Positions 13,116 to 58,603 of a DNA stretch of 64,000 nt are shown here, piece by piece (the first letter of the stretch is position 1; the number at the start of each line of letters is the position of its first letter). The notes below the pieces were generated by a model, which worked only from the letters and a program-made list of their open reading frames with translations, had not been told where the DNA came from and made no database searches. The translations under genes were made by a program, and so were the position numbers. The stretch is from contig JADKIU010000002.1 in the NCBI GenBank assembly GCA_016722565.1, positions 1,030,119 to 1,094,118 of the forward strand, in the 5' to 3' direction. The stretch is from Bacteroidota bacterium (lineage in GTDB: Bacteria; Bacteroidota; Bacteroidia; 2-12-FULL-35-15).

Positions 13116-13736
13116 ATGAACTTCTCCTCAAAACTAATCGAAGAAGCTGTAAACGAATTTAGTAAGTTGCCCGGGGTGGGAAAACGTACTGCGTTGCGCT
13201 TTGTGTTGCATTTAATGAAACAAGATGCAGCTGAAGTGAACAAATTTGGCGGTGCCTTTATTAAGCTCCGTAACGAACTCCGTTATTGCGAAAAATGCCA
13301 CAATGTTTCAGACAAACCTTTGTGCGAAGTTTGTGTGAACCCACACAGAGATAACAGCGTTATTTGTGTTGTAGAAGATATCCGCGATGTGATGGCCATT
13401 GAGAACACCCAACAATATCGTGGCGTTTATCACGTTTTAGGTGGAATTATTTCTCCAATGGATGGAATTGGTCCAAGTGACTTGAATATCGAAACGCTTG
13501 TTAAAAAGGCAACCTCCGGAGAAATCAAAGAAGTGATAATGGCTTTAAGCACAACTATGGAAGGCGATACAACCAATTTTTATATCTATAAACGGTTAAA
13601 AGAATTCAATGTAACAGTGTCCACCATTGCCCGTGGAATTTCAATTGGCGATGAATTGGAATATGCAGATGAAGTAACGCTTGGTCGTTCTATTGTCAAT
13701 CGTACACTCTACGAAAACTCCTTATCATTCAAATGA
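13116..13736 (+). CDS. recR: Recombination protein RecR
   Basis: HhH ([12 protein letters not shown]), C4 zinc finger [16 protein letters not shown], and a Toprim region [15 protein letters not shown]. Start taken at [12 protein letters not shown] within the longer ORF. Confidence 0.9.
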
Positions 13737-16333: not shown

Positions 16334-17746
16334 CTACCGAACAAACTTCCCACTCACCACTTCGCTTCCCACTACTCCTTTTAGAATGTAAACACCTGCT
16401 GGAAATCCGTTGAAATCGATCACCGAAATACCTTGTCCGATTTTTTTAGTAAGCAGCAATTTCCCTGTCACATCATAAATGTAAATATCAACTGAATGGA
16501 GCGAAGTTGCGCACGTAACTGTTCCATCGTGCATCCAATAGTGAAATTCATTTTTCAAATCGGATACTTCATTTATACCAATAGGAATTGAAAATTCATG
16601 TGCACCAATATCGATTGTACCACTTATTAATCTTAAAATTTCATTCGCTGGGTGTGAATATTCTTTGTCAGGTGTTAATGGGAAACCGGAATTCGCAAGT
16701 CCAGGATTTGTTCCAGAATTAACAGCTATCGAACTTGGGATAAGATGATAATCATACGAACTTGGACTCACAAAACCCATTGTTACAATGCTGGTTGCGC
16801 GAATATTATTCGAACTATCTATAACGGTTGCAGCTCCTGAAAGAGACGTTCCCGGTCCTGCAAAAATATTATTATACGATTTATACAAATCTAAACCCGA
16901 AGCAGGCAAAGAAATGAACGTTCCGGAGGAGCGATCATTCACAACTGTATTGTTCACAAAATAAAATTCTTGTGGTCCCGGATTTGTCAATCCTTCCAAT
17001 CCATAACCTACGATTCCGGAGTTGGTCGAATTAGGTCCTTGCTCAATTACATTCCCAATCACATAACTGGTTCCACCATTCGGAAGATCAATTTCTCTAC
17101 TGGCATTTCCGGTTGCTTCATTGCTGAGTCGGTTATACATCACATAGTTCACATGCGCTCTGCTTTTCAATTCATGCCCAATGTTACAATGATGTGTATA
17201 GTTGTAACGAAAAATCAATGTATCAATATTGTTGATGTACAGATTATGCGTGTAGCCATCACCAAAACCATTGTTACTAAATTCGGTATACTCTACAATA
17301 ATCTTACTTGGATTTAATGTTCCTGCAAGAATGCCATTTTCATTATCATGAAAATAACAATGACTAACGGTTAGGTTCAGACCTTCTTGTCGGATACCGG
17401 CACCATTTTCGGAAGGACAGGCACACAAAGAAAATTCTATCCATTCTACTTTGGTGTTGTTTCCACCAATCACCCAAATTGCCTTTCCACCCCAACTTAA
17501 TCCGTTTGCTTTTAGATGCGCCATTCCACCCACACCGCGCAGCAACAAATTATTGGCTGTCCAATGCGCTACATCGGAATTATATATTCCTGCATCAATA
17601 GAAACCGTATCTCCATTTGCAACTAATGTAGAAACCTGACTTGGTAAGGTATAAAAACGACTAGGCCCCACTAACCAATTGGTTGAATAAGAAGATTGGA
17701 GAATGAAAAGAAATAAAAGAATACTACCGATTTTTATCGTTTTCAT
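16334..17746 (-). CDS. Secreted right-handed beta-helix (pectate-lyase-fold) protein with T9SS/Por C-terminal sorting domain
   Basis: Signal peptide; repeated N.G....N parallel beta-helix motifs; C-terminal about 80 aa ...GVYILKGVVGSEVVSGKFVR typical of a T9SS CTD. Confidence 0.7.
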   Translation of the reverse strand: MKTIKIGSILLFLFILQSSYSTNWLVGPSRFYTLPSQVSTLVANGDTVSIDAGIYNSDVAHWTANNLLLRGVGGMAHLKANGLSWGGKAIWVIGGNNTKVEWIEFSLCACPSENGAGIRQEGLNLTVSHCYFHDNENGILAGTLNPSKIIVEYTEFSNNGFGDGYTHNLYINNIDTLIFRYNYTHHCNIGHELKSRAHVNYVMYNRLSNEATGNASREIDLPNGGTSYVIGNVIEQGPNSTNSGIVGYGLEGLTNPGPQEFYFVNNTVVNDRSSGTFISLPASGLDLYKSYNNIFAGPGTSLSGAATVIDSSNNIRATSIVTMGFVSPSSYDYHLIPSSIAVNSGTNPGLANSGFPLTPDKEYSHPANEILRLISGTIDIGAHEFSIPIGINEVSDLKNEFHYWMHDGTVTCATSLHSVDIYIYDVTGKLLLTKKIGQGISVIDFNGFPAGVYILKGVVGSEVVSGKFVR

Positions 17747-17801
17747 GATTTCAATTATTAATGAATTAGCAATTTAAAACAATAAATGCTCTTGGGTAAG
17801 T

Positions 17802-18335
17802 TTATTTCACAAATAGTTTTGGATGACTTCCTGATGATTTAACCTGAAGTAGAATATCAAACAACTTCGCAGTAGCTACAGCATCGCCTTCCGCTCTGTG
17901 TCTTGCGTTATTCGGGATATTCAATGCATCACATATTTTCCCTAAGCTATATGATTTATGACCGGGAATTAGTTTTCTGCTTAATTGGACAGTACATAAC
18001 TTCTTTCGTTCGAAATGAAAACCTAAGGAAGCGAATTCTGCTTTGATGAAATTATAATCGAAACTCACATTGTGAGCAACAAAGGTTTTATTGTCGGTGA
18101 GTTCGTGAATTTTTTTTGCGACTTGATGAAATTTTGGAGCTCCAACTACCATTTCGTTGGTAATACCGGTAATATCTGTATATAAAGGGGAGATATAACA
18201 TTCCGGATCAATGAGAGTAGAAAATTTATCGACCACACTTAATCCATCATGAATTAAAATACAGATTTCGGTGATGCGTCCTGTAGGATAATTGAATTTA
18301 CCTCCGCAGGTTTCTATATCGATGATGGCAAACAT
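17802..18335 (-). CDS. DnaQ-like 3'-5' exonuclease (DEDDh, epsilon-subunit family), stand-alone domain; paralog of the N-terminus of 19588..20967
   Basis: MFAIIDIETCGG (Exo I), FVAHNVSFDYNF (Exo II), HRAEGDAVATAKLF (Exo III). About 75% identical to residues 1-170 of the 459-aa neighbour. Confidence 0.85.
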   Translation of the reverse strand: MFAIIDIETCGGKFNYPTGRITEICILIHDGLSVVDKFSTLIDPECYISPLYTDITGITNEMVVGAPKFHQVAKKIHELTDNKTFVAHNVSFDYNFIKAEFASLGFHFERKKLCTVQLSRKLIPGHKSYSLGKICDALNIPNNARHRAEGDAVATAKLFDILLQVKSSGSHPKLFVK

Positions 18336-18376
18336 TGTTGCAAAGATATGATTTTGACACAGAGACTCGTGTTTTT

Positions 18377-18460
18377 AGCCACAGATTCACAGATTAAAAT
18401 TTTCAAATTAGAAATCTCACCAATTATTTTCTAAAACAGAAAATCTGTGAATCTGTGGCT
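18377..18460. repeat. Perfect 19-20 bp inverted repeat (AGCCACAGATTCACAGATT ... AATCTGTGAATCTGTGGCT) with a 46-nt spacer, lying between the lexA-like stop and the exo177 start. Each arm contains a tandem CACAGATT x2.
   Basis: The arms at 18377-18395 and 18442-18460 are exact reverse complements, as read directly from the sequence. Confidence 0.9.
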
Positions 18461-18465
18461 ACCCA

Positions 18466-19224
18466 CTATTTTCCCATTTCAACGCGGAATGACTGCAAGA
18501 AACGAATCATGCTTTCCAAGTTTAAGTCTTGTGGTTTAAACTCACCAATATTTAAGCTGCATACAAAGCTCCAAACTTCGATGATGTTTTCTGTTTTAAC
18601 CGGATATGGACTATACACAGGATTATCTGAGTGAAACTGGAATACATCGTTCGATTTTTTATCTTCACGATACAGGCGTTTGTACACCACTCCATCTTCT
18701 TTGGTAAGGATGATATAGGTTTGTCCGTCTTTTATTTCTTTCATCGACTCCACATATTTACCCACTACGAATGTTCCATCTTTTAGTAATGGCATAGAAT
18801 CCCCTTTTATGGAGAATGCACGGTGTTTGCCAACAATTTTAAATGGGAGGTTCATGATTGGCAGATCCTCGATAAATTCAGGATCGGCATACCCATTTAA
18901 ATAACCGGCAACCGCTTTTGCAGGAACCACTTCTACCAGGTCTTGATTTTGACGATCAACAATCACAGGAAACAGGATTCTGTTTTTCCCGATTTCGAGC
19001 AATGACTCCGGATCCGTTTTTGCCAAATCACCTCTCACCAATGCATCAATGGCAATGTGAAAATGATCTGCAATTTTGATTAATAAATCATAAGGAGGCT
19101 CAGCTCTTCCTTCTTCATAAGATCCTAATCGAGAGCGGGAAATATCCAATTCATCCGCTAACTGAGTTTGAGATAATTTTTTTAGTGCTCTCAGAACACT
19201 AATGTTTTTGGCTATTTTTGACAT
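18466..19224 (-). CDS. LexA-like / phage-CI-like transcriptional repressor (N-terminal HTH_XRE, C-terminal S24 peptidase with Ser-Lys dyad)
   Basis: HTH: LSQTQLADELDISRSRLGSYEEGR. S24: ...AFSIKGDSMPLL... then ...GVVYKRL. The start is placed at the internal MSKIAKNISVL because the upstream part of the ORF track entry overlaps the promoter. Confidence 0.8.
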   Translation of the reverse strand: MSKIAKNISVLRALKKLSQTQLADELDISRSRLGSYEEGRAEPPYDLLIKIADHFHIAIDALVRGDLAKTDPESLLEIGKNRILFPVIVDRQNQDLVEVVPAKAVAGYLNGYADPEFIEDLPIMNLPFKIVGKHRAFSIKGDSMPLLKDGTFVVGKYVESMKEIKDGQTYIILTKEDGVVYKRLYREDKKSNDVFQFHSDNPVYSPYPVKTENIIEVWSFVCSLNIGEFKPQDLNLESMIRFLQSFRVEMGK

Positions 19225-19238
19225 TGCTAATATATTTA

Positions 19239-19266
19239 GCACAAATATACTAAATATATTTGCACA
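19239..19266 (-). promoter_or_regulatory. Putative promoter/operator of the lexA-like gene: imperfect palindrome CAAATATA-N5-TATATTTG, providing a TATATTTG (-7 box) on the coding strand about 20 bp upstream of the ATG. Near-identical motif upstream of dinB.
   Basis: The plus strand reads gcacaaatatactaaatatatttgcaca; compare 21035-21058. Confidence 0.5.
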
Positions 19267-19300
19267 TTTGCAAATGTAAATCAAAAAATGTTTTGTTTGT

Positions 19301-19320
19301 GTCCCGATAACTATCGGGAT
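19301..19320. repeat. Palindromic element GTCCCGATAACTATCGGGAT (member of a dispersed 20-bp palindrome family)
   Basis: Other copies lie at 19425-19442, 55679-55696 and 58584-58603. Confidence 0.85.
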
Positions 19321-19424
19321 AAGATTTTAAGATTTCGAATCGGGGTGCTGTTTTCAAGAAAAAAATAAACAATGCCATGGTTATTTAAATAATGAAACCA
19401 CCCCGATTTTTTTTCTCGACTTCG

Positions 19425-19442
19425 CTCGATAGCTATCGGGAC
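19425..19442. repeat. Palindromic element CTCGATAGCTATCGGGAC (same family); its flank GGGACGAAATG is the reverse complement of the flank of the 58584 copy
   Basis: Direct sequence comparison. Confidence 0.85.
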
Positions 19443-19587
19443 GAAATGGCAAAAGTCAATCTCGAAATGACAATAATAAAATAATCATCGCGAGGCGCGA
19501 GGCAATTTCGGAAAAGTAATTGAAAGAGATTGTCTCGCTGCCTTCACAATGAGAGAAGCCACCAAAACTCAAAATACCATATCCTCC

Positions 19588-20967
19588 TCAATCTAATCCA
19601 AGTGGATATAACTTAATTTTTGGGTTTTGTTTTAAAAAACCTCTAACTAAATCATTCGCATCCGGGAAGTAGGTGCATCGTTTCACATAGTTTTTAAAGT
19701 CATTGGGCGAATTTATTTCTACTGTTATATCAAAATAACCAACTCCTCTCACAACATTCTCTTCAATAAGAATAACCGATTTCTCTCCAAGCACTTTCCC
19801 TTTATCGATAATCACAAAATCCGAATATGGAAGCAGATACTGCTGCATCAGTTCATTTGCGCGCTTATTATAAATGACTACCTCTTCTTCTCCGGCACAA
19901 ATGCCATTGCATTTTTTTATCTGATGATTAAAACAAATTGAACCGGCTTCCGTTAATCCACAGTACAGCAAACACAAATCATTTTCATCCAATAAGGTTT
20001 CTAACTTTTCACGTGCAGCAAAATAGGAATTAAAAGACATCAAGGGCGATTGTGCATCGGCATATTCTACCAATTTAAAATTGATGATCCCTTTGTCATC
20101 TTTAAACCAATCAATACTATGTGTAAATGAATCGGATTTTCGCTGGCGATTATATTTGGGTTTATGCTTTTTTATTTCTTCGGCCTCCATAAGCAATGCG
20201 ATCAATTCACTTCCGGTAGCAACAAAATCAACATTATACAATTCGTTCAACATTTTCCTGCCTTTCTGTTCTTTTGTATTAAAGTGGCTCATGGCTCTGT
20301 TGTATGCATTTACACTTTTGCCGATGTATATGATTTGTTGATCTTGATCCAAAAAATAATATACACCACACTCTTCCGGAAGTTTATTTAGAATATATTT
20401 TTTAATCTTATCAATTCGTCTTACCATCAATTCGTCAACCCCTTTGGTTTTGTATTGAGGATGATCGCTTTTGATTTGCATTAATCGGTCAAACAATTTT
20501 GCTGTTGCAACAGCATCTCCTTCCGCTCTGTGTCGGTCTTCAATTTCGATCCCCAACGATTCACAAAGATTTCCGAGACTATACGACTTCTTACCGGGAA
20601 TTAATTTCCTGCTCAAACGAACAGTACACAGCGTGTCGCGTTTAAATTTCGCCCCAAATGAATTAAACTCTTCTTTTATAAATCCATAATCAAACCCCAC
20701 ATTGTGTGCTACAAAAATCTTGTTCTCTGTCATCTCCCATATTTTTTTGGCAACTTCAGGAAAGGTTGGCGCATCTTGTACCATTTCATTTGTAATTCCT
20801 GAAATACGAGTAAATGTTGGATGAATATAACATTGTGGATTTATCAATGTCGAGAATTTATCTACTACAGTCAACCCATCGTGGATTAAAATACAGATTT
20901 CAATTACATGTCCTCTTCTGTATTCAAATTTCCCTCCGCAGGTTTCTATGTCGATGATGGCAAACAT
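19588..20967 (-). CDS. Fusion protein: N-terminal DnaQ-like 3'-5' exonuclease + C-terminal GIY-YIG nuclease with UvrC-N-like Cys motif (Cho-like/Rv2191-like architecture)
   Basis: Exo motifs MFAIIDIETCGG / FVAHNVGFDYGF / HRAEGDAVATAKLF. GIY-YIG: CGVYYFLDQDQQIIYIGKSVNAYNRAMSHF. The UvrC-like ICFNHQIKKCNGICAG sits after the GIY-YIG. Confidence 0.8.
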   Translation of the reverse strand: MFAIIDIETCGGKFEYRRGHVIEICILIHDGLTVVDKFSTLINPQCYIHPTFTRISGITNEMVQDAPTFPEVAKKIWEMTENKIFVAHNVGFDYGFIKEEFNSFGAKFKRDTLCTVRLSRKLIPGKKSYSLGNLCESLGIEIEDRHRAEGDAVATAKLFDRLMQIKSDHPQYKTKGVDELMVRRIDKIKKYILNKLPEECGVYYFLDQDQQIIYIGKSVNAYNRAMSHFNTKEQKGRKMLNELYNVDFVATGSELIALLMEAEEIKKHKPKYNRQRKSDSFTHSIDWFKDDKGIINFKLVEYADAQSPLMSFNSYFAAREKLETLLDENDLCLLYCGLTEAGSICFNHQIKKCNGICAGEEEVVIYNKRANELMQQYLLPYSDFVIIDKGKVLGEKSVILIEENVVRGVGYFDITVEINSPNDFKNYVKRCTYFPDANDLVRGFLKQNPKIKLYPLGLD

Positions 20968-21034
20968 TGTTAATATTTTCTTTGGCGCTACAAGCCCTTT
21001 AATTAGAAGGATACAAAGGTTACTAAAATACTTG

Positions 21035-21058
21035 GCACAAAATTACTAAATATATTGG
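21035..21058 (+). promoter_or_regulatory. Putative promoter/operator upstream of dinB-dnaE2 (ggcacaaaattactaaatatattgg), 22/24 identical to the lexA-like upstream motif, with a partial direct repeat ttactaaaata at 21020-21030
   Basis: Aligns as GCACAAA(W)(W)TACTAAATATATT(K)G with 19239-19262. It sits 45-68 bp upstream of the dinB ATG in a divergent intergenic region shared with the exo-GIY-YIG gene. Confidence 0.45.
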
Positions 21059-21102
21059 TAATTTCAAATCGAAATTAATTCGCTACTCCAATTCTCAAAA
21101 AA

Positions 21103-22260
21103 ATGAATAAGCGCACGATTGTCCATATGGATTTGGATTCTTTTTTTGTATCCGTTGAACGCTTAAACAATAGCAGCCTTAACGGAAAACCCGTAATTAT
21201 AGGAGGTACATCCGACAGAGGGGTTGTGGCATCTTGCAGTTATGAAGCACGACAATTTGGTGTTCATTCCGCAATGCCGGCAAGAATGGCCAAACAACTC
21301 TGCCCACAGGCCATCTTTGTTCAGGGCGACTATGATGAATATTCCAAACACTCCAACATTGTTACAGAAATTATAAATGAACAAAGTCCGATTGTTGAAA
21401 AAGCAAGTATAGACGAACACTATCTTGATATTACCGGGATGGAACGCTATGTTAAACCAAGCATGCAATGGACGCATGAGTTAAGAGAACGGATCATCAA
21501 ACAATCCGGATTACCCATTTCATTTGGTTTATCTGCCAACAAAACTGTTTCTAAAATTGCGACCGGTGAATCCAAACCGAATGGAGAATTAAGCGTTGAC
21601 CATGGATTAGAAAAACTTTTTCTGAGCCCGCTTTCTATTAGAAAAATTCCGGGAATAGGTGATAAAACGTACATGCTGTTGCGCAACATGGGAATTGAAA
21701 GAGTGCAAACCATTCAACAAATGCCCATCGAAATGATGACAAGTGTTCTGGGAGAGAATGGTCAAACTATTTGGAAAAAATCAAACGGAATTGACAATTC
21801 TCCTGTTGAACCTTATTCTGAAAGAAAAAGCATTAGCAAGGAAACAACTTTTGATAAAGATACTACAGATATTAAAAAACTAAAGCAGCATATTGTTACA
21901 ATGGTTTTTGATTTGGCATTTCAACTCCGCAAGGAAAAAAAAGTAACCGGTTGCATTGTACTAAAATTACGTTATACCGATTTCCAAACACATACATTTC
22001 AATGTAAAATCGCACATACCTCTTCCGATCATATTCTACTAACGAAAGCAATGGAAGTATTTGAAAAAAATTACTCCCGCAGAGTACTCATCCGTTTAAT
22101 AGGAATCAAACTAACGAATCTAGCAGCTGGCTACAATCAAATTCATTTATTTGATGATACGGAAGAAATGGTAAAACTATATCAAGCAATGGATAAAATC
22201 CGTTTGCGGTATGGAGAAGATGCAATAAAAAGAAGTATCAGCTTAGGTAAAAAACGATAA
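21103..22260 (+). CDS. dinB: Y-family DNA polymerase IV (DinB type, catalytic residues retained)
   Basis: HMDLDSFFVSVE (catalytic Asp pair), SIDEHYLDIT (catalytic D-E), little-finger region. Similar to DinB along its full length, unlike ImuB, which lacks these residues. Confidence 0.85.
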   Translation: MNKRTIVHMDLDSFFVSVERLNNSSLNGKPVIIGGTSDRGVVASCSYEARQFGVHSAMPARMAKQLCPQAIFVQGDYDEYSKHSNIVTEIINEQSPIVEKASIDEHYLDITGMERYVKPSMQWTHELRERIIKQSGLPISFGLSANKTVSKIATGESKPNGELSVDHGLEKLFLSPLSIRKIPGIGDKTYMLLRNMGIERVQTIQQMPIEMMTSVLGENGQTIWKKSNGIDNSPVEPYSERKSISKETTFDKDTTDIKKLKQHIVTMVFDLAFQLRKEKKVTGCIVLKLRYTDFQTHTFQCKIAHTSSDHILLTKAMEVFEKNYSRRVLIRLIGIKLTNLAAGYNQIHLFDDTEEMVKLYQAMDKIRLRYGEDAIKRSISLGKKR

Positions 22261-25191
22261 ATGATACTAAATGCGCATACATATTATAGCTTACGATATG
22301 GAACACTATCCATTGAGGAAGTAGTGCAAGCTGCGCTTGACAACAACTACGAAGCGATTGCAATTACCGATATTAATAATTCTTCAGGGGTTTTAGAATT
22401 TGTAAAGGTTTGTTTTGAAAAATGCATCAAGCCAATTGTTGGCATGGAGTTTCGAAATGGAGACGAACTTCAGTTTATTGCCATCGCTAAAAACAATGAT
22501 GGATTTAAGGAAATTAATGAATTAATGACAGCATGCAACATTTCATGCACAACAATTCCAAAACGAGCTGAATTGCACAACTGTTATATCATTTATACTT
22601 ATTCAAAAGCCACAACAGAGGAGTTAAAAGAAAACGAATTTATTGGAATTCGTTCCAATCAAATCAATAAAATACTTTTTGATTCTGAAAAACAAAAAAG
22701 TAAATATGTCATCTTGCAATCACTTACCTACGACAATCAAAAAGGGTATGATGTGCACCAAAAATTATGTGCAGTAGGCCACAACTTACTTTTATCACAA
22801 CTAAAGCCGGAAAATACTGCAGGCAATGACGAACACCCCATACCAAGAAAGCTGTTATTGAAAAAATTTGAAGAGCTACCGCAATTGATTAAAAACACAA
22901 AAATAATTGTGGAGAATTGTTGTTTCAACTTCGATTTTAAATCCAATAAAAATAAAAAAACATTTACCGGAAATAAAAACGATGATACGTTACTTCTTCA
23001 AAAATTAGCATACGATGGCCTCACATTCAGATATGGAGCAAACAACAAGATAGCCAAACAACGAGTTGATAATGAATTGGCAATTATCAACAATCTTGAT
23101 TTTTCCGCATATTTTTTAATCACGTGGGATATTGTCCGATATTCCATGTCGAGAGGATACTATCATGTAGGACGAGGAAGCGGTGCAAACAGCGTGGTTG
23201 CATATTGCTTAAGAATTACTGACGTTTGCCCGATTGAACTGGATCTCTATTTCGAACGTTTTTTAAATCCAAAAAGAAAGTCGCCTCCGGATTTTGATAT
23301 TGATTATAGCTGGAAAGAACGAGATGATGTTATTGATTATATTTTTAAACGATACGGCAGAAAACATACCGCCCTGCTAGGCACAATGTCAACCTTTAAA
23401 GACCGGTCGATTATTCGCGAATTGGGAAAAATCTATGGATTACCAAAAGAAGACATTGACCGATTAATCAAAGATCCGAATTCGGCACTCAATGAAAATG
23501 AAATTTGCAAAACCATTCTCAGTTATTATAGTGAAATAGAAAACTATCCGAATACAAGAAGCATTCATGCAGGTGGAATTTTAATTTCAGAAGAGCCACT
23601 CACCGCCTATTGCGCCTTAGACATGCCTCCCAAAGGTTTTCCAACCACGCAATTCGACATGTATTTGGCCGAAGATATTGGTTTAGACAAACTCGATGTT
23701 TTAAGCCAGAGAGGCATCGGACATATAAAAGAAGCGGCAGAAATTGTAAAACAAAACAAAGGCATATCGATTGATGTTCACGACATCAATAAATTTAAAA
23801 CCGATAAAAAAGTTCAAGCACAATTATTGTCGGGCAACACAATTGGTTGTTTTTATGTGGAAAGCCCTGCGATGCGCGGATTACTCAAAAAACTAAATTG
23901 TGACAATTACCTTACATTGGTAGCTGCAAGCTCAATCATCCGCCCTGGAGTAGCAAGGAGTGGCATGATGAAAGCATATATTCAACGATCACACAACCCT
24001 GAAAGCTTTGAATATCTACATCCGGTTATGAAAGAGCAGCTGAAGGATACATTTGGTGTAATGGTATACCAAGAAGATGTTTTAAAAGTTGGACATTACT
24101 TTGGAGGATTGGATTTGGCCGATGCGGATGTACTAAGAAGAATGATGAGTGGAAAATCAAGAAACAAAAAGCATTTAGAAGAAATAGAAGCTAAATTTTT
24201 CAACCATTGTAAAGAACAAAAATACCCCGAACACATTTCGAATGAAGTATGGCGGCAAATAGAATCTTTTGCAGGTTACAGCTTTAGCAAAGCGCATTCA
24301 GCAAGCTATGCTGTTGAAAGCTACCAAAGTTTATATCTAAAATCCTATTTCCCAATGGAATTTATGGTCGCTGTCATCAACAACTTCGGAGGTTTTTACA
24401 ATACACGAATCTATGTAAACGAAGCCCAAATGTCAGGTGCTGAAGTACATTTACCTTGTGTTAATAAAAGTACATATACAACCAATATCCATGGGAAAGA
24501 CATTCACCTTGGATTTATACATTTAAAAAGCTTAGAAGAAAAAATTGGACAAACAATTGAATCTGAACGAAACAAAAATGGGAACTATACATCCTTAGAG
24601 GATTTCCTAAAACGTATTCAAATTGGGATTGAACAACTTATTATTCTCATTCGTATTAATGCATTCCGATTTACAAAAAAAAACAAACGACAACTATTGT
24701 GGGAAGCACATTTGCTAATGGGACAAAATCAAACAAAACACAGTTCTATGTTATTCGAGCCTCCTAAAAGTGACTTTACGCTACCACCATTGGAATACAA
24801 CAAAATCGAAGATGCGTATGATGAAATAGAATTACTCGGATTTACAACAACATTAAATCCTTTCGATTTACTTAAAACGGCAAGTCGTGAAAGCCTCAGA
24901 GCAAAAGAACTGATACATTTTACAGGAAAACAAATTCGAATCATGGGCAACTATGTAACGTACAAACCAGTAAGAACAATCAATGGGGACCAGATGGCTT
25001 TCGGAACATTTTTAGATATGGATGGTTGTTTTTTTGATACCGTTAACTTTCCACCTAGCTTAAAAAAATTCCCATTCACAGGATCCGGTGTATATCTGAT
25101 TTCGGGAAAAGTAGTTGAGGAATTCGGATTTCCGAGTATTGAAGTAGAAAAAATGGCTCGATTACCAATACAACCTGACCCAAGAAATTAA
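22261..25191 (+). CDS. dnaE2: Error-prone DNA polymerase DnaE2 (ImuC; PolIII-alpha family, PHP domain N-terminus, about 976 aa)
   Basis: PHP domain (HTYYSLRYGT...ITDINN), polymerase core (GRGSGANSVVAYCLRITDV...DFDIDY), about 1000 aa rather than 1160. Its ATG directly follows the dinB TAA (coupled). Confidence 0.85.
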   Translation: MILNAHTYYSLRYGTLSIEEVVQAALDNNYEAIAITDINNSSGVLEFVKVCFEKCIKPIVGMEFRNGDELQFIAIAKNNDGFKEINELMTACNISCTTIPKRAELHNCYIIYTYSKATTEELKENEFIGIRSNQINKILFDSEKQKSKYVILQSLTYDNQKGYDVHQKLCAVGHNLLLSQLKPENTAGNDEHPIPRKLLLKKFEELPQLIKNTKIIVENCCFNFDFKSNKNKKTFTGNKNDDTLLLQKLAYDGLTFRYGANNKIAKQRVDNELAIINNLDFSAYFLITWDIVRYSMSRGYYHVGRGSGANSVVAYCLRITDVCPIELDLYFERFLNPKRKSPPDFDIDYSWKERDDVIDYIFKRYGRKHTALLGTMSTFKDRSIIRELGKIYGLPKEDIDRLIKDPNSALNENEICKTILSYYSEIENYPNTRSIHAGGILISEEPLTAYCALDMPPKGFPTTQFDMYLAEDIGLDKLDVLSQRGIGHIKEAAEIVKQNKGISIDVHDINKFKTDKKVQAQLLSGNTIGCFYVESPAMRGLLKKLNCDNYLTLVAASSIIRPGVARSGMMKAYIQRSHNPESFEYLHPVMKEQLKDTFGVMVYQEDVLKVGHYFGGLDLADADVLRRMMSGKSRNKKHLEEIEAKFFNHCKEQKYPEHISNEVWRQIESFAGYSFSKAHSASYAVESYQSLYLKSYFPMEFMVAVINNFGGFYNTRIYVNEAQMSGAEVHLPCVNKSTYTTNIHGKDIHLGFIHLKSLEEKIGQTIESERNKNGNYTSLEDFLKRIQIGIEQLIILIRINAFRFTKKNKRQLLWEAHLLMGQNQTKHSSMLFEPPKSDFTLPPLEYNKIEDAYDEIELLGFTTTLNPFDLLKTASRESLRAKELIHFTGKQIRIMGNYVTYKPVRTINGDQMAFGTFLDMDGCFFDTVNFPPSLKKFPFTGSGVYLISGKVVEEFGFPSIEVEKMARLPIQPDPRN

Positions 25192-25342
25192 AAATTAATC
25201 CTGTCGGAACAAGACAAACAACACAATAAAAAATAGTATTTATAACCGCAACAGATTTCTATCACAATGGATTAGCACTAAATTCCCTCTCATTTTCAAA
25301 AAATCTGCTATATTTACGATAGAATTTATGCATAACAACACT

Positions 25343-31674: not shown

Positions 31675-32403
31675 TTACTTTTTATAAAAAATGCCGTTAC
31701 ATTGTAATACTTTTCCTGTCACATTATCCGTGAAAGCTGGTACAATACTGGTTAATACAAAGCCTTTTTGCTCCATATACTCCAACACTTGAGGTAGCAA
31801 CCATGTTTGATTTTCATATAACGGCACTAGCGAAATCTCCATTTCAATCCCTTTTGCCAGAGCAATCATTTCTGAAGCTCCTTTTAGCACTTCTTGCTCA
31901 AACCCTTGCACATCAATTTTCAAAAAAATGTTTTTTGAAGAACCGATATACGTTTTTGCAATTTCATCCAATGGATAAACAGTCACTTTCTCCTTTCCAA
32001 TAATCTTGGATTCAGGGGCGCCTTCAATATGTGTGTCCAACATGGTTAGAAGCGTGCTGCTAACCGAATTGGCAGAAATATTAATTTCAATTTCTTCCTT
32101 TTTTGAACCAATTGCGCAACGCGGAGCCACTGTCCAATTTGTATGGGATTTACTTGCATTTTCAATAATTGAATGAACAGATGACAAAGGTTCAAACGAA
32201 ACAATTTTCTGCTGATACCCAACATCCATTATTCCTGTAGCATATTGCCCTTTATTTGCTCCAATATCAAAAACCAAATCAATGCTATAGTGTTCGAATA
32301 GTTTAATACGTCTCAAATCTTCACTTGTAGCAGCATTGTACTTGCGTATTAAAATTCCGAAATTTTGAAATATTTTTTTTGTGATTCGTTCAAAGCTATT
32401 CAT
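31675..32403 (-). CDS. FkbM-family SAM-dependent methyltransferase (start uncertain; the ORF extends to 32541)
   Basis: The DLVFDIGANKGQYA motif and overall FkbM architecture. Confidence 0.65.
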   Translation of the reverse strand: MNSFERITKKIFQNFGILIRKYNAATSEDLRRIKLFEHYSIDLVFDIGANKGQYATGIMDVGYQQKIVSFEPLSSVHSIIENASKSHTNWTVAPRCAIGSKKEEIEINISANSVSSTLLTMLDTHIEGAPESKIIGKEKVTVYPLDEIAKTYIGSSKNIFLKIDVQGFEQEVLKGASEMIALAKGIEMEISLVPLYENQTWLLPQVLEYMEQKGFVLTSIVPAFTDNVTGKVLQCNGIFYKK

Positions 32404-32522
32404 TGCATCAAAAGTATTAGACTGCAATATTAAGGAATTTTGGGATGGTTTGGGAATTTTAAGTCCGCTAAAACCATTAAAAAACAAACCAATAAAGCAT
32501 AATTTTATTACATTTGTGAAGC

Positions 32523-33395
32523 ATGTCAGCTGAAAAATCATATAAAGAAGTGAGTGGATTTATCACTCAAATTGCAAACACTTGCATTTCTGTTTTAAAG
32601 GTATTTGTCCGCTCTAAATTCGGAGTGCATTTACCAACAGCTCAGGAAGAAACATGTATTGTATTGGGAAACGGCCCCTCACTTAAAAAATCATTTGAGA
32701 ACCATCCCGATTTTTTCACAAAGCATTCATTGATTTGCGTGAACAACTTTTCGCTTACACAATACTATGAAAAATTACAGCCAAAGTATTATGTGATGTT
32801 GGATCCAGGATACTGGTTTGGAAACAACCAAACGGTGATTGATACGATTAACTGCATCCAAACAAAAACAACTTGGGAAATGCATTTACTCCTGCCACCT
32901 GCTGCAAAAAAATCGGTTTTGCTTCAGCAACTGATTGAAAAAAACAAGAACATCCATCCTACTTATTTTAACTATACAGTTTTTAAAGGGTTCAAAAATA
33001 TTGCTCATCGTTTTTACAAAAAGAACTTGGCCATGATTCAAAGTCAGAATGTTTTGGTTGCCTCCGTTTTTCTAGGAATAAACATGGGATATAAAAAAGT
33101 GTATGTTTTTGGAGCAGATCATACCTGGCATGAAAATTTGCATGTGGATGAGAACAATGTTCTTTGCTTGAAAAATGTGCATTTTTATGAAAACGAAGAG
33201 CTAATAAAATACACTCCCTTCTATAAGGGAGTTCATACGAAAGAAACATTCCGTATGGACGAAATTCTAGTGACATGGGGAAAAACCTTTTATGGATATG
33301 TGGCATTGAATGAATATGCCGTTTCTCAGAATTGCACAATTTATAACGCAAGTGAAATTTCTTTTATAGACGCTTTTAAACGTATTAAACTGTAA
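32523..33395 (+). CDS. GT42/DUF115 (MAF_flag10)-like glycosyltransferase; candidate nonulosonic-acid (pseudaminic acid) transferase
   Basis: IVLGNGPSLK and VNNFSLTQYYEKL...MLDPGYW resemble the N-terminal motifs of Cst-II-type sialyltransferases and Maf proteins. Located beside the pse genes. Confidence 0.5.
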   Translation: MSAEKSYKEVSGFITQIANTCISVLKVFVRSKFGVHLPTAQEETCIVLGNGPSLKKSFENHPDFFTKHSLICVNNFSLTQYYEKLQPKYYVMLDPGYWFGNNQTVIDTINCIQTKTTWEMHLLLPPAAKKSVLLQQLIEKNKNIHPTYFNYTVFKGFKNIAHRFYKKNLAMIQSQNVLVASVFLGINMGYKKVYVFGADHTWHENLHVDENNVLCLKNVHFYENEELIKYTPFYKGVHTKETFRMDEILVTWGKTFYGYVALNEYAVSQNCTIYNASEISFIDAFKRIKL

Positions 33396-55678: not shown

Positions 55679-55696
55679 CTCGATAGCTATCGGGAC
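55679..55696. repeat. Palindromic element CTCGATAGCTATCGGGAC immediately downstream of the carB stop
   Basis: The same family as 19301, 19425 and 58584. Confidence 0.85.
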
Positions 55697-55708: not shown

Positions 55709-58525
55709 CTATTTACTCAAGTACAAATTTCTCTCACTATAAATCGTGTGAAAGAATTCATCTGTCAAGTCATCAATGAAGTATATCGCCTCTCCAGTTG
55801 ATTTCATTTCCGGTCCAAGTTCTTTGGTTACTTCCGGGAACTTTTCATAGGAGAACACCGGAATTTTAATTGCGTATCCTTTTTTTCGAGGAGTGAATTT
55901 AAAGTCCTTCACTTTGGCGCCCAACATTACTTTTGTTGCATAGTTAACGTATGGCTCGTCATACGCTTTGGCGATAAACGGAACCGTACGCGATGCGCGT
56001 GGGTTTGCTTCAATGATATATACTACCTCATCCTTAATCGCGAACTGAATGTTCAACAACCCAACTGTTTTTAAAGCGATGGCAATTTTCTTGGTATGGT
56101 CTTCCATTTGCTTAATCACATTCTCACTTAAATCAAATGGTGGAAGAACAGCGTACGAATCACCGGAGTGAATTCCTGCAGGCTCAATGTGTTCCATCAT
56201 TCCAATAATGTAATTATCTGTTCCATCACAAATCGAATCACTCTCCGCTTCTATTGCTCCTTCTAAAAAGTGGTCCAACAATACTTGATTGCCCGGATGG
56301 TCTTTTAATAAATTCACAACATGTTGCTCCAACTCTTGCTCGTTGATCACAATCTTCATGTTTTGTCCACCCAATACATAACTCGGGCGCACCAACAATG
56401 GGAATCCTAATTCTTTTGATAATTCAACTGCTTGTTCTGCATCTTCAATTACTCCGAATTTCGGATATGGAATACCATTCTCTTTTAGCAAGTTCGAGAA
56501 ACTTCCTCTGTCTTCCGCCAAATCCAATGATTTATAATCGGTACCGATAATCTTAATTCCGTAGCGCTCTAACTTTTCTGCCAACTTCAATGCTGTTTGT
56601 CCGCCTAACTGCACAATCACACCTTCCGGTTTTTCATTTAAGATAATGTCGTAAATATGCTCCCAGAAAACCGGTTCGAAATATAATTTATCCGCTACAT
56701 TAAAATCGGTTGAAACTGTTTCAGGATTACAGTTAATCATAATCGTTTCGTAACCACATTCTTTGGCAGCTAATACTCCATGCACACAGCTATAGTCAAA
56801 TTCAATCCCTTGTCCGATACGATTCGGACCGCTTCCCAACACTACAATTTTTTTCTTGTCGGATGCAATGGATTCATTTTCATCTTCGAATGTACTGTAG
56901 TAATAAGGTGTTTTCGCTTCAAACTCAGCAGCACAGGTATCTACCAATTTGTAAACACGATTAATTTTCAAATCTCTTCGTTGGTTAAACACTTCACTCT
57001 CCAAACATTTCAATAAGTGAGCAATTTGTCTATCAGCATATCCTTTTTGTTTTGCTTCGTATAAAAGTTCACGCGGCAAATCTTTCAATGAATATTTCGA
57101 AATTTCATTCTCTAATAAAATCAACTCTTCAATTTGGTTTAAGAACCAAGGATCGATGCGGGTTAATTTTTGAATGGTTTTGATGGAAATCCCTAATTTG
57201 ATTGCATCATAGATGTGGAATAAACGATTCCAGCTCGGACGCTCCAAGCTTTTTAATAACTCATCTTGATTTTTTACTTCTTTACCATCTGCACCTAAAC
57301 CATTGCGTTTGATTTCTAAACTCTGACATGCTTTTTGCAAAGCTTCCTGGAAGCAACGTCCAATGCCCATTACTTCACCCACCGATTTCATCTGAAATCC
57401 TAATTCACGATTCGCGCCTTTGAATTTATCAAAGTTCCAACGTGGAATTTTCACAATGACATAATCCAATGTCGGCTCAAAAAAGGCCGAAGTAGATTTG
57501 GTAATTTGATTTTGTAATTCATCCAAATTAAATCCAATCGCCAGTTTAGCTGCAATTTTTGCAATCGGGTAACCGGTAGCTTTACTTGCTAATGCGGAAG
57601 AACGGGACACACGCGGATTGATTTCAATCGCGATAATATCTTCTGAATCATCCGGGTTCACCGCAAACTGCACATTACATCCACCCGCAAAATTCCCGAT
57701 GCTGCGCATCATTTTTATCGCCATGGTACGCATCTTCTGAAACGTACTATCGGACAAGGTCATTGCCGGTGCAACTGTGATACTATCTCCGGTATGAACA
57801 CCCATTGGATCGAAATTTTCAATCGAACAAATGATTACGACATTATCATTACTATCACGCAACAATTCCAACTCATATTCTTTCCAGCCCATAACGGCTT
57901 TATCAATCAATACTTCGTGGATTGGTGAAGTATGTAAACCTCTATCAATTGCTTTATCAAAATCTTCTTTTACGTATACTACTGAACCGCCACTTCCACC
58001 AAGGGTAAATGATGGACGAATTACCAATGGAAAACCAAACTCTTGAGCAATTTCTTTCCCTTCTAAAAACGAACGACAGATTTTAGATGGCGCCATGCTC
58101 ACTCCTATCGATTCCATGCGAGCACGGAACTTATCTCTATCTTCTGTAACTTCAATCGCTTCAATATCTACCCCAATCATTCGAACACCATACTTTTTCC
58201 AGATGCCCATCTCATCGCACTTCATCGCAAGGTTCAATGCAGTTTGTCCGCCTACTGATGGCAAAACCGCATCAATATCTTTGTTCTCTTCTAAAATCTT
58301 TACAATCGACTTCACTTCCATTGGCAACAGGTAAACATTCTCTGCTGTTACTTTATCGGTCATGATGGTAGCCGGATTCGAATTAATCAACGTTACTTTC
58401 ACTCCTTCTTCGCGTAACGAACGAGCGGCTTGCGAACCGGAATAATCAAATTCACATGCTTGTCCGATTACAATTGGACCGCTCCCGATGATTAAAACTG
58501 ACTTTATGGAATTATCTCTTGGCAT
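55709..58525 (-). CDS. carB: Carbamoyl-phosphate synthase large subunit
   Basis: 938 aa; duplicated ATP-grasp halves; N-terminal MPRDNSIKSVLIIGSGPIVIGQACEFDYSGSQA. Confidence 0.95.
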   Translation of the reverse strand: MPRDNSIKSVLIIGSGPIVIGQACEFDYSGSQAARSLREEGVKVTLINSNPATIMTDKVTAENVYLLPMEVKSIVKILEENKDIDAVLPSVGGQTALNLAMKCDEMGIWKKYGVRMIGVDIEAIEVTEDRDKFRARMESIGVSMAPSKICRSFLEGKEIAQEFGFPLVIRPSFTLGGSGGSVVYVKEDFDKAIDRGLHTSPIHEVLIDKAVMGWKEYELELLRDSNDNVVIICSIENFDPMGVHTGDSITVAPAMTLSDSTFQKMRTMAIKMMRSIGNFAGGCNVQFAVNPDDSEDIIAIEINPRVSRSSALASKATGYPIAKIAAKLAIGFNLDELQNQITKSTSAFFEPTLDYVIVKIPRWNFDKFKGANRELGFQMKSVGEVMGIGRCFQEALQKACQSLEIKRNGLGADGKEVKNQDELLKSLERPSWNRLFHIYDAIKLGISIKTIQKLTRIDPWFLNQIEELILLENEISKYSLKDLPRELLYEAKQKGYADRQIAHLLKCLESEVFNQRRDLKINRVYKLVDTCAAEFEAKTPYYYSTFEDENESIASDKKKIVVLGSGPNRIGQGIEFDYSCVHGVLAAKECGYETIMINCNPETVSTDFNVADKLYFEPVFWEHIYDIILNEKPEGVIVQLGGQTALKLAEKLERYGIKIIGTDYKSLDLAEDRGSFSNLLKENGIPYPKFGVIEDAEQAVELSKELGFPLLVRPSYVLGGQNMKIVINEQELEQHVVNLLKDHPGNQVLLDHFLEGAIEAESDSICDGTDNYIIGMMEHIEPAGIHSGDSYAVLPPFDLSENVIKQMEDHTKKIAIALKTVGLLNIQFAIKDEVVYIIEANPRASRTVPFIAKAYDEPYVNYATKVMLGAKVKDFKFTPRKKGYAIKIPVFSYEKFPEVTKELGPEMKSTGEAIYFIDDLTDEFFHTIYSERNLYLSK

Positions 58526-58583: not shown

Positions 58584-58603
58584 GTCCCGATAGCTATCGG
58601 GAG
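58584..58603. repeat. Palindromic element GTCCCGATAGCTATCGGGAG in the carB 5' leader region
   Basis: The same family; a perfect 16-bp core CCCGATAGCTATCGGG. Confidence 0.85.

Follow-up and report, generated by a model that had tools for sequence, protein, structure and literature searches.

The 64,000-nucleotide stretch of an uncultured Bacteroidota genome analyzed here (contig JADKIU010000002.1, positions 1,030,119 to 1,094,118; from here on, the window) contains two copies of a shared sequence, one upstream of a lexA-like gene and one between a gene for an exonuclease fused to a GIY-YIG nuclease (exo-GIY-YIG) and the divergent dinB-dnaE2 pair. We conclude, with a probability of close to 90%, that each copy is part of a compact SOS cassette with two operators that are bound by dimers of the LexA homologue encoded at 18466-19224. 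This conclusion draws on the anatomy of the sequence, on its conservation, and on the assignment of the protein to its family, all from the present analysis, and operator specificity and induction by DNA damage are taken from a homologue with 44% identity.

The two strings that an original prediction had quoted for this element, starting at 19239 and 21035, are both present. In the alignment of 19239-19262 with 21035-21058, 21 of the 24 positions are identical and not 22 as had been counted, because the consensus given in that prediction itself holds three degenerate positions. The degenerate 24-mer GCACAAAWWTACTAAATATATTKG matches the 64 kb exactly twice, even with three mismatches allowed, against a chance expectation of 0 in 100 shuffles. 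A repeat search identified a 37-nt direct repeat (19224-19260 and 21020-21056; 84% identical) that extends past the ~25 bp reported. These ~25 bp had been read as a single operator; they actually comprise the last base of one operator, the reverse complement of a −7 box, and a second operator, and the GCACAAA in the predicted motif corresponds, in reverse complement, to the final bases of the −7 box and the TG. What had been called a degenerate half-site repeat before the dinB copy is a repeat, as described, and is really a full second site (21023-21035); the counterpart of this site, at 19227-19239, lies just beyond the lexA-side coordinates of the prediction. Overall, the functional reading of the original prediction is essentially right, and its operator anatomy was misassigned.

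Each copy forms a cassette of two 13-bp CTAA-N5-TTAG palindromes, 23 bp apart centre to centre, with a minus-strand Bacteroidetes −7 box between them. The −7 consensus of Bacteroidetes promoters is TAnnTTTG. On the minus strand, both copies read TTTG, 19-21 nt that include the 13-bp palindrome O1, TAnnTTTG, TG, and the 13-bp palindrome O2, and both cassettes face this strand, as do the lexA and exo-GIY-YIG promoters with their consensus −33/−7 elements. In cassette 1, the lexA-proximal operator O2 (CTAATATATTTAG; 19227-19239) is a perfect CTAA-N5-TTAG, the only exact one within the window, and ends 2 nt before the lexA ATG at 19224. The lexA-distal operator O1 (CTAAATATATTTG, one mismatch; 19250-19262), centered 23 bp from O2, occupies the −33/−7 spacer of the lexA promoter. 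The −7 box of this promoter, TATATTTG (19242-19249, minus strand), lies between the two operators, and a TTTG at 19271-19274 (minus strand), 21 nt upstream of the −7 box, is a candidate −33 element as read from the sequence. As predicted, TATATTTG is present on both strands of the lexA copy, the plus-strand occurrence being at 19255-19262, and the operator region overlaps the lexA promoter, in agreement with the suggestion that the repressor could occlude its own promoter.

Cassette 2 lies within the 135-bp divergent region between exo-GIY-YIG and dinB, where an operator had been anticipated and where we located sites at 21023-21035 and 21046-21058. The former is the exo-GIY-YIG-proximal operator O2′ (CTAAAATACTTGG, one mismatch), which is followed by 55 nt and then the ATG at 20967. 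The latter is O1′ (CTAAATATATTGG, one mismatch), 23 bp from O2′. The −7 box of the exo-GIY-YIG promoter, likewise read from the sequence, is TAATTTTG (21038-21045, minus strand), and the −33 element TTTG (21065-21068, minus strand) is located 19 nt upstream of it. On its other side, O1′ abuts a weak −7-like box on the plus strand (TAATTTCA; 21059-21066), 44 nt before the dinB ATG, which we tentatively assign to a dinB-dnaE2 promoter.

CTAA-N5-TTAG is the operator of the non-canonical (HTH_3 + S24) LexA of Bacteroidetes described by Sanchez-Osuna et al., NAR 2021 (PMC8565304). For the Pontibacter actiniarum protein, binding to this motif was validated by electrophoretic mobility shift assay (EMSA) and site-directed mutagenesis; changes to the dyad or to spacer length abolished binding and changes to spacer sequence were tolerated, which establishes a rigid 5-bp spacer (PMC8565304). 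Specific binding and damage induction were shown for P. actiniarum, S. agarivorans, and Elizabethkingia anophelis, and the tested regulon genes, including those for the regulator and error-prone polymerases, were induced by mitomycin C (PMC8565304). Among the regulon members are the genes for the regulator itself, for dinB/Y-family polymerases, and for a GIY-YIG exonuclease that is homologous to the proofreading subunit of Pol III (PMC8565304). The half-site variants TTGG, TTTG, CCAA, and CAAA, as found in the window, also occur in the published site lists, and Table S5 contains pairs of sites with a spacing of 19-23 bp at the promoters of polymerase, lexA, and repair genes; the text of the paper mentions only "two or more motif instances" and does not discuss spacing, cooperativity, or promoter elements (PMC8565304). 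The motif name CTAA-N5-TTAG was not found in any other paper in the literature searched. The shared sequence, proposed to be the operator region for the S24/HTH lexA-like protein, thus matches a published, EMSA-validated operator. The label "non-canonical SOS box" in the original prediction was apt as to the kind of site, and such sites have been described since 2021; the shared motif is a new example of this already known LexA system.

The regulator itself is a 252-aa non-canonical (Bacteroidetes-type) LexA (18466-19224, minus strand) in which Pfam identified an HTH_3 domain (PF01381; residues 11-60, E 1.8e-12) and a Peptidase_S24 domain (PF00717; residues 109-215, E 3.9e-10). The self-cleavage residues A106-G107, S143, and K182 are invariant in a 30-sequence homologue alignment, and because all aligned homologues begin MSKIAKNI, the ATG at 19224 is the correct start. 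Pfam gave no match in this protein to PF01726, the winged helix-turn-helix (HTH) domain of canonical LexA, and the N terminus is of the HTH_3/XRE type; NCBIfam lacks a model specific to this type of LexA, and its top match, a phage RstR HTH, is below the cutoff. The reference sequences available for comparison (PMC8565304, Supplementary Data S5) are C-terminal sequences, and the protein comparison covers the C-terminal domain only. Over this domain, the window repressor shares 44% identity with P. actiniarum WP_025606010 (134 bits, E 4e-43) and 43-44% with the CTAA-group proteins WP_025606010, WP_011585264, and WP_014679698 (134-143 bits) compared to 27-31% with the GGA-group proteins WP_075324850 and WP_013622346 (52-65 bits). 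By its C-terminal domain, it therefore falls into the CTAA group and not into the GGA-N5-TCC group. Nearly all named homologue matches and loci are from Bacteroidota, two loci being titled "uncultured bacterium," consistent with a restriction of the family to this phylum. We note that four repressor-encoding contigs (L023, L033, L056, and L065) are from metagenome-assembled genomes (MAGs) named Comamonas, Akkermansia, Bifidobacteriaceae, and Limnohabitans, probably as a result of contamination during binning.

For comparison, we used 80 loci with repressor homologues (50-96% identity) from species-representative genomes, 72 of which have an unambiguous ATG. Two CTAn-N5-nTAG sites are present directly upstream of the lexA ATG in 65 of the 72 loci, spaced 23 bp apart in 52 and 22 bp apart in 12, while the remaining pair (L075), 19 bp apart, is probably spurious; a site at the O2 position (−15/−14) is also found in 65 of 72. 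The 39 unique sequences with a 23-bp pair yield the consensus TTA-CTAnnAnnTnTAG-TAnnTTTG-nG-CTAnAAnTTnTAG-CA-ATG, in which the CTA/TAG bases and the −7 box have the highest information content and the flanks show no conservation. At the lexA −7 position, at least five of the six specified TAnnTTTG bases are present in 37 of these 39 relatives, and a TTG is found 6-9 nt upstream of O1 in 25. The complementarity of CTAA-type dyads in the relatives is 81-90%. The fourth dyad position varies by clade (CTAA/TTAG, CTAC/GTAG, or CTAT/ATAG), with both half-sites changing together, as is characteristic of sites recognized by a symmetric dimer. In clades with CTAC-N5-GTAG or CTAT-N5-ATAG (L021-L055 and others), CTA/TAG, the spacer of 5 bp, and the two-site register of 22-23 bp are maintained. 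The HTH region of the repressor differs in step with the dyad type (e.g., SRSRLGSYEEGRAEP, TRARLGAYEEGRNEP, and TRSRIGGYEEARNEP), and these differences could indicate which residues determine specificity.

Among the ~52 open reading frames of the window, only these two promoters have the shared architecture, which bears out the claim that the resemblance exceeds generic promoter likeness. CTAA-N5-TTAG with at most one mismatch has 29 matches in the window, of which 6 are intergenic and 4 of those make up the two cassettes. Moreover, no paired sites other than those upstream of lexA were found in 235 kb of the 23 CTAA-type loci. On these counts, we rejected a common promoter architecture, the outcome that had been named as contradicting the prediction. 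No further regulon members were found in the window, with recR (13116-13736) and other genes lacking an intergenic site. A third 23-bp pair of single-mismatch sites (32037-32049 and 32060-32072) lies inside the open reading frame for an FkbM-type methyltransferase (31675-32541, minus strand), which belongs to a polysaccharide-synthesis cluster. The spacers of this pair are G+C-rich, unlike those of the real cassettes, and we treated it as a chance occurrence despite an expectation of only ~0.013 such pairs.

The gene read from cassette 2 encodes a 459-aa DEDDh exonuclease fused to a GIY-YIG nuclease (19588-20967, minus strand; Pfam RNase_T + GIY-YIG), and the consensus promoter within the cassette is directed at this gene, which in the relatives is usually the first gene downstream of lexA. 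Divergent from cassette 2 are dinB for DNA polymerase IV (21103-22260, plus strand) and a gene for a dnaE2-like error-prone polymerase alpha subunit (22261-25191, plus strand). The recurrent order in the relatives is dnaE2←dinB←|cassette|→lexA→exo-GIY-YIG; in 38 of the 80 loci, dinB is located upstream of lexA and read from the other strand. The dinB-lexA gap is 59-226 bp in the 21 loci where it could be delimited and <80 bp in 11, so that in those loci one cassette must serve both divergent promoters. Several relatives have a full TAnnTTTG directly after O1 in the dinB direction (TAATTTTG in L035, TAACTTTG in L046 and L007, and TATTTTTG in L047), and the 44-nt distance from the dinB-side box to the ATG in the window is comparable to that in the relatives. 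The conserved position thus supports that cassette 2 may control dinB-dnaE2.

Based on these observations, we propose that two dimers of the 252-aa HTH_3/S24 LexA occupy O1 and O2. At cassette 1, O1 would be bound in the −33/−7 spacer and O2 over the start-site region, to within 2 nt of the ATG, and by this placement the repressor would shut off its own gene. The same arrangement at cassette 2 would govern the exo-GIY-YIG gene on the minus strand. On the opposite face of cassette 2, O1′ would abut the dinB −7-like box and O2′ would lie further upstream over the promoter; with this layout, the divergent dinB-dnaE2 could be repressed by the same two dimers. Upon DNA damage, RecA-stimulated self-cleavage at Ala106-Gly107, with Ser143 and Lys182 as the catalytic residues, would free the promoters, and release of the repressor would induce all three transcription units, i.e., lexA, exo-GIY-YIG, and dinB-dnaE2. 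Both cassettes have an operator spacing of 23 bp, and 64 relatives have one of 22-23 bp. In phage lambda, the corresponding centre-to-centre distances are 23 bp for OR2-OR3 and 24 bp for OR1-OR2. Because the 23-bp register matches that of OR2-OR3 and the DNA-binding domain is CI-like, cooperative binding is a plausible possibility.

A comparison with the closest relative, L001 (~80% DNA identity), bears on the origin of the two cassettes. The window and L001 are collinear except for one segment, in which L001 3811-5657, containing a single gene for a 422-aa Y-family polymerase, is replaced by the 5.7 kb of window 19557-25282. This replacement module consists of exo-GIY-YIG, cassette 2, dinB, and dnaE2. 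Cassette 1 is of the L001/L002 type (CAAA...; TATATTTG), and cassette 2 is of the L004/L007 type (CCAA...; TAAT-type box). A short DEDDh exonuclease paralogue of 177 aa, encoded downstream of lexA (17802-18335, minus strand), shares 68% DNA identity with the 5′ part of the exo-GIY-YIG gene. We considered a recent tandem duplication as the source of the copies and rejected it on account of the 68% identity of the exonuclease genes, the different cassette types, and the module replacement relative to L001. Because the cassette types differ and the exonuclease genes are only 68% identical, the copies are old relatives joined by module exchange. That they have remained similar reflects constraint on the operators and the −7 box. 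The replacement itself suggests an exchange of SOS mutagenesis modules along with the operators belonging to them.

Several points weigh against the two-operator LexA cassette as we describe it. One of the four window sites is perfect and the other three carry one mismatch. The reference protein is only 44% identical to the window repressor, in a comparison limited to its C-terminal domain. The dinB-side −7 box (TAATTTCA) is weak and has no clear −33 element, and for this reason conserved position is what argues for direct control of dinB. Binding in this organism, the start-site positions, and cooperativity are features that we infer. Finally, shared descent and the embedded −7 box, and not operator constraint alone, explain part of the similarity of the copies. 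In its strongest form, this last point would mean that the copies are alike merely as related copies of one promoter, by descent and generic −33/−7 elements, and bind no repressor. Such a reading draws on the −7 box in the middle of the shared block, on the replacement of another gene by the module with cassette 2 relative to the closest relative, and on the resemblance of cassette 2 to the L004 and L007 lexA cassettes. It does not account for CTA/TAG, which fall outside any promoter consensus and yet show the strongest conservation of all columns in relatives with as little as 50% protein identity, between flanks that are randomized, nor for the covariation of the half-sites; the same 13-mer is, moreover, an experimentally proven operator in a homologous system (PMC8565304), and the architecture is found at no further promoter of the window. 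We consider it very improbable.

Even less probable, in our view, is that the sites serve as operators for another regulator whose gene lies elsewhere, for instance an HTH_3/S24 paralogue or a CI-like repressor of a prophage. Extensive paralogy and motif divergence between paralogues are documented for this regulator family (PMC8565304) and lend this idea some weight, as does the fact that our analysis covers 64 kb of the genome; the cassette is, however, physically linked to the lexA homologue in 65 of 72 species, the dyad type follows the clade of the adjacent protein, and the neighbourhood contains no phage genes. The least probable of the alternatives is that the operator is a single site formed by the longer dyad CAAATATA-N5-TATATTTG centred on CTAAA, as originally predicted. 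In the lexA copy, this sequence is indeed a perfect 8+8 inverted repeat with 8/8 complementary positions, whereas in the second copy only 5/8 are complementary, and in the 39 relatives the mean complementarity is 48%, which we estimate to be about the level of unrelated AT-rich arms, compared to 81-90% for the CTAA-type dyads. The two arms correspond to the −7 box and to the left part of O1, whose overlap produces the symmetry as a side effect, and published mutagenesis places binding on CTAA/TTAG with a rigid 5-bp spacer (PMC8565304). Thus, two CTAA-N5-TTAG operators bound by the adjacent LexA remain our preferred explanation of each cassette.

Downstream of cassette 1, we observed a conserved ~85-nt hairpin (19333-19418, plus strand) with an invariant apical GCCATGGTT, followed in the window by a T8 run. 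The apical sequence could be a mini-ORF (ATG GTT ATT stop) with an A-rich tract before it. A covariance model built from six copies matched the window, L001 (5820-5906), L002 (234-320), L003 (5472-5552), L004 (1441-1525), L007 (5821-5903), L010 (2871-2957), and L011 (5826-5910), in each of these seven relatives on the minus strand of the locus, with a weak match in L005. The hairpin is always upstream of lexA on the opposite strand, and in L001, L004, L005, L007, and L011, a Y-family polymerase gene follows directly downstream on the same strand, placing the hairpin in its leader. In the alignment, 90.7% of cells are paired and G-U pairs favour the plus strand; the covariation score is 0.323 compared to 0.157 in shuffles (0/500) and 0.04-0.09 in slid controls, in an alignment that was fitted to the model and in which one of the nine rows is a reverse-strand match. 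An Rfam scan of 17700-21200 gave no match to the leader hairpin, returning only sub-threshold noise (MIR172, at the 18369-18468 hairpin). The hairpin lies within the motif span but outside the operator. The module replacement has left it orphaned in the window, where it ends in T8 and could be an SOS-controlled small transcript.

Other palindromes were noted in the same region. The 16-bp palindrome CCCGATAGCTATCGGG (at most one mismatch) has four copies in the window compared to 0.04 expected, all of them intergenic. Two (19303-19318 and 19425-19440) flank the leader hairpin, giving a 145-nt nested palindrome, and the other two (55679-55694 and 58586-58601) flank the gene for the carbamoyl-phosphate synthase large subunit (55709-58525); CCCGATAGCTATCGGG may be an element of the repetitive extragenic palindrome type. 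A perfect 20-bp inverted repeat (18376-18395/18442-18461) with a 46-nt loop and no T-run after it separates the stop codon of lexA from the short exonuclease gene; an attenuator, a processing site, and a protein-binding site are candidate roles for it. A −7-like box, TATCTTTG, is found 5 nt before the ATG of the short exonuclease gene.

These results describe a concrete regulatory circuit for an uncultured Bacteroidota genome, in which an autoregulated CI-like LexA would act over an error-prone polymerase pair and a proofreading/GIY-YIG nuclease, and they extend the 2021 description of the Bacteroidetes SOS response to a deep-branching MAG clade. They also sharpen this description in that the two operators stand in a nearly invariant 22-23-bp register around a −7 box, that one cassette can serve two divergent promoters, and that the fourth dyad position drifts (A, C, or T) with CTA/TAG fixed, providing a natural series for the study of specificity change. 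Current understanding is not overturned; as leads, the bidirectional cassette of fixed phase and the orphan leader RNA are modest. If these leads are combined, one arrives at a tentative and, taken as a whole, rather doubtful scenario in which the fixed-phase two-operator cassette, and not a single SOS box, would be the regulatory unit and a portable bidirectional SOS switch, cooperatively bound by two CI-like LexA dimers in the manner of lambda CI at OR1-OR2 and moving with exchangeable mutagenesis modules, and in which the cassette that stayed behind at lexA would still fire divergently into the orphaned leader (19333-19418, T8) to give an SOS-inducible small RNA outside Rfam.

Among known systems, the closest is the Bacteroidetes LexA represented by WP_025606010.1, with which the window shares a PF01381 HTH and an S24 domain with AG/S/K, a 13-bp palindrome with a 5-bp spacer, sites at the regulator's own promoter, and, as targets, dinB/error-prone polymerases and a DEDDh-GIY-YIG exonuclease. 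Unlike the P. actiniarum system, the window is from an uncultured Bacteroidota lineage with a groundwater MAG as closest relative, and unlike in the published text, it has a strict two-site 23-bp cassette that brackets the −7 box and is used as a bidirectional control region. The E. anophelis paralogue (TTAC-AAATT-GTAA) is similar in that its dyad has drifted with the 5-bp spacer kept, as in the relatives with CTAC/GTAG and CTAT/ATAG (PMC8565304), whereas the window retains the ancestral CTAA/TTAG dyad. As in the canonical LexA system of Escherichia coli, a self-cleaving, autoregulated S24 repressor has operators that overlap translesion polymerase promoters, often with more than one box per promoter; in contrast to E. 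coli LexA (CTGT-N8-ACAG), the window protein lacks PF01726, its motif is unrelated, and the promoters are of the Bacteroidetes −33/−7 type. With CI of phage lambda (OR1-OR2/OR2-OR3), the window shares a CI-type HTH and an S24 domain and adjacent palindromic operators that straddle divergent promoters; unlike the lambda system, the locus is chromosomal and controls repair genes, and its operators are shorter (13 bp against 17 bp) and number two instead of three.

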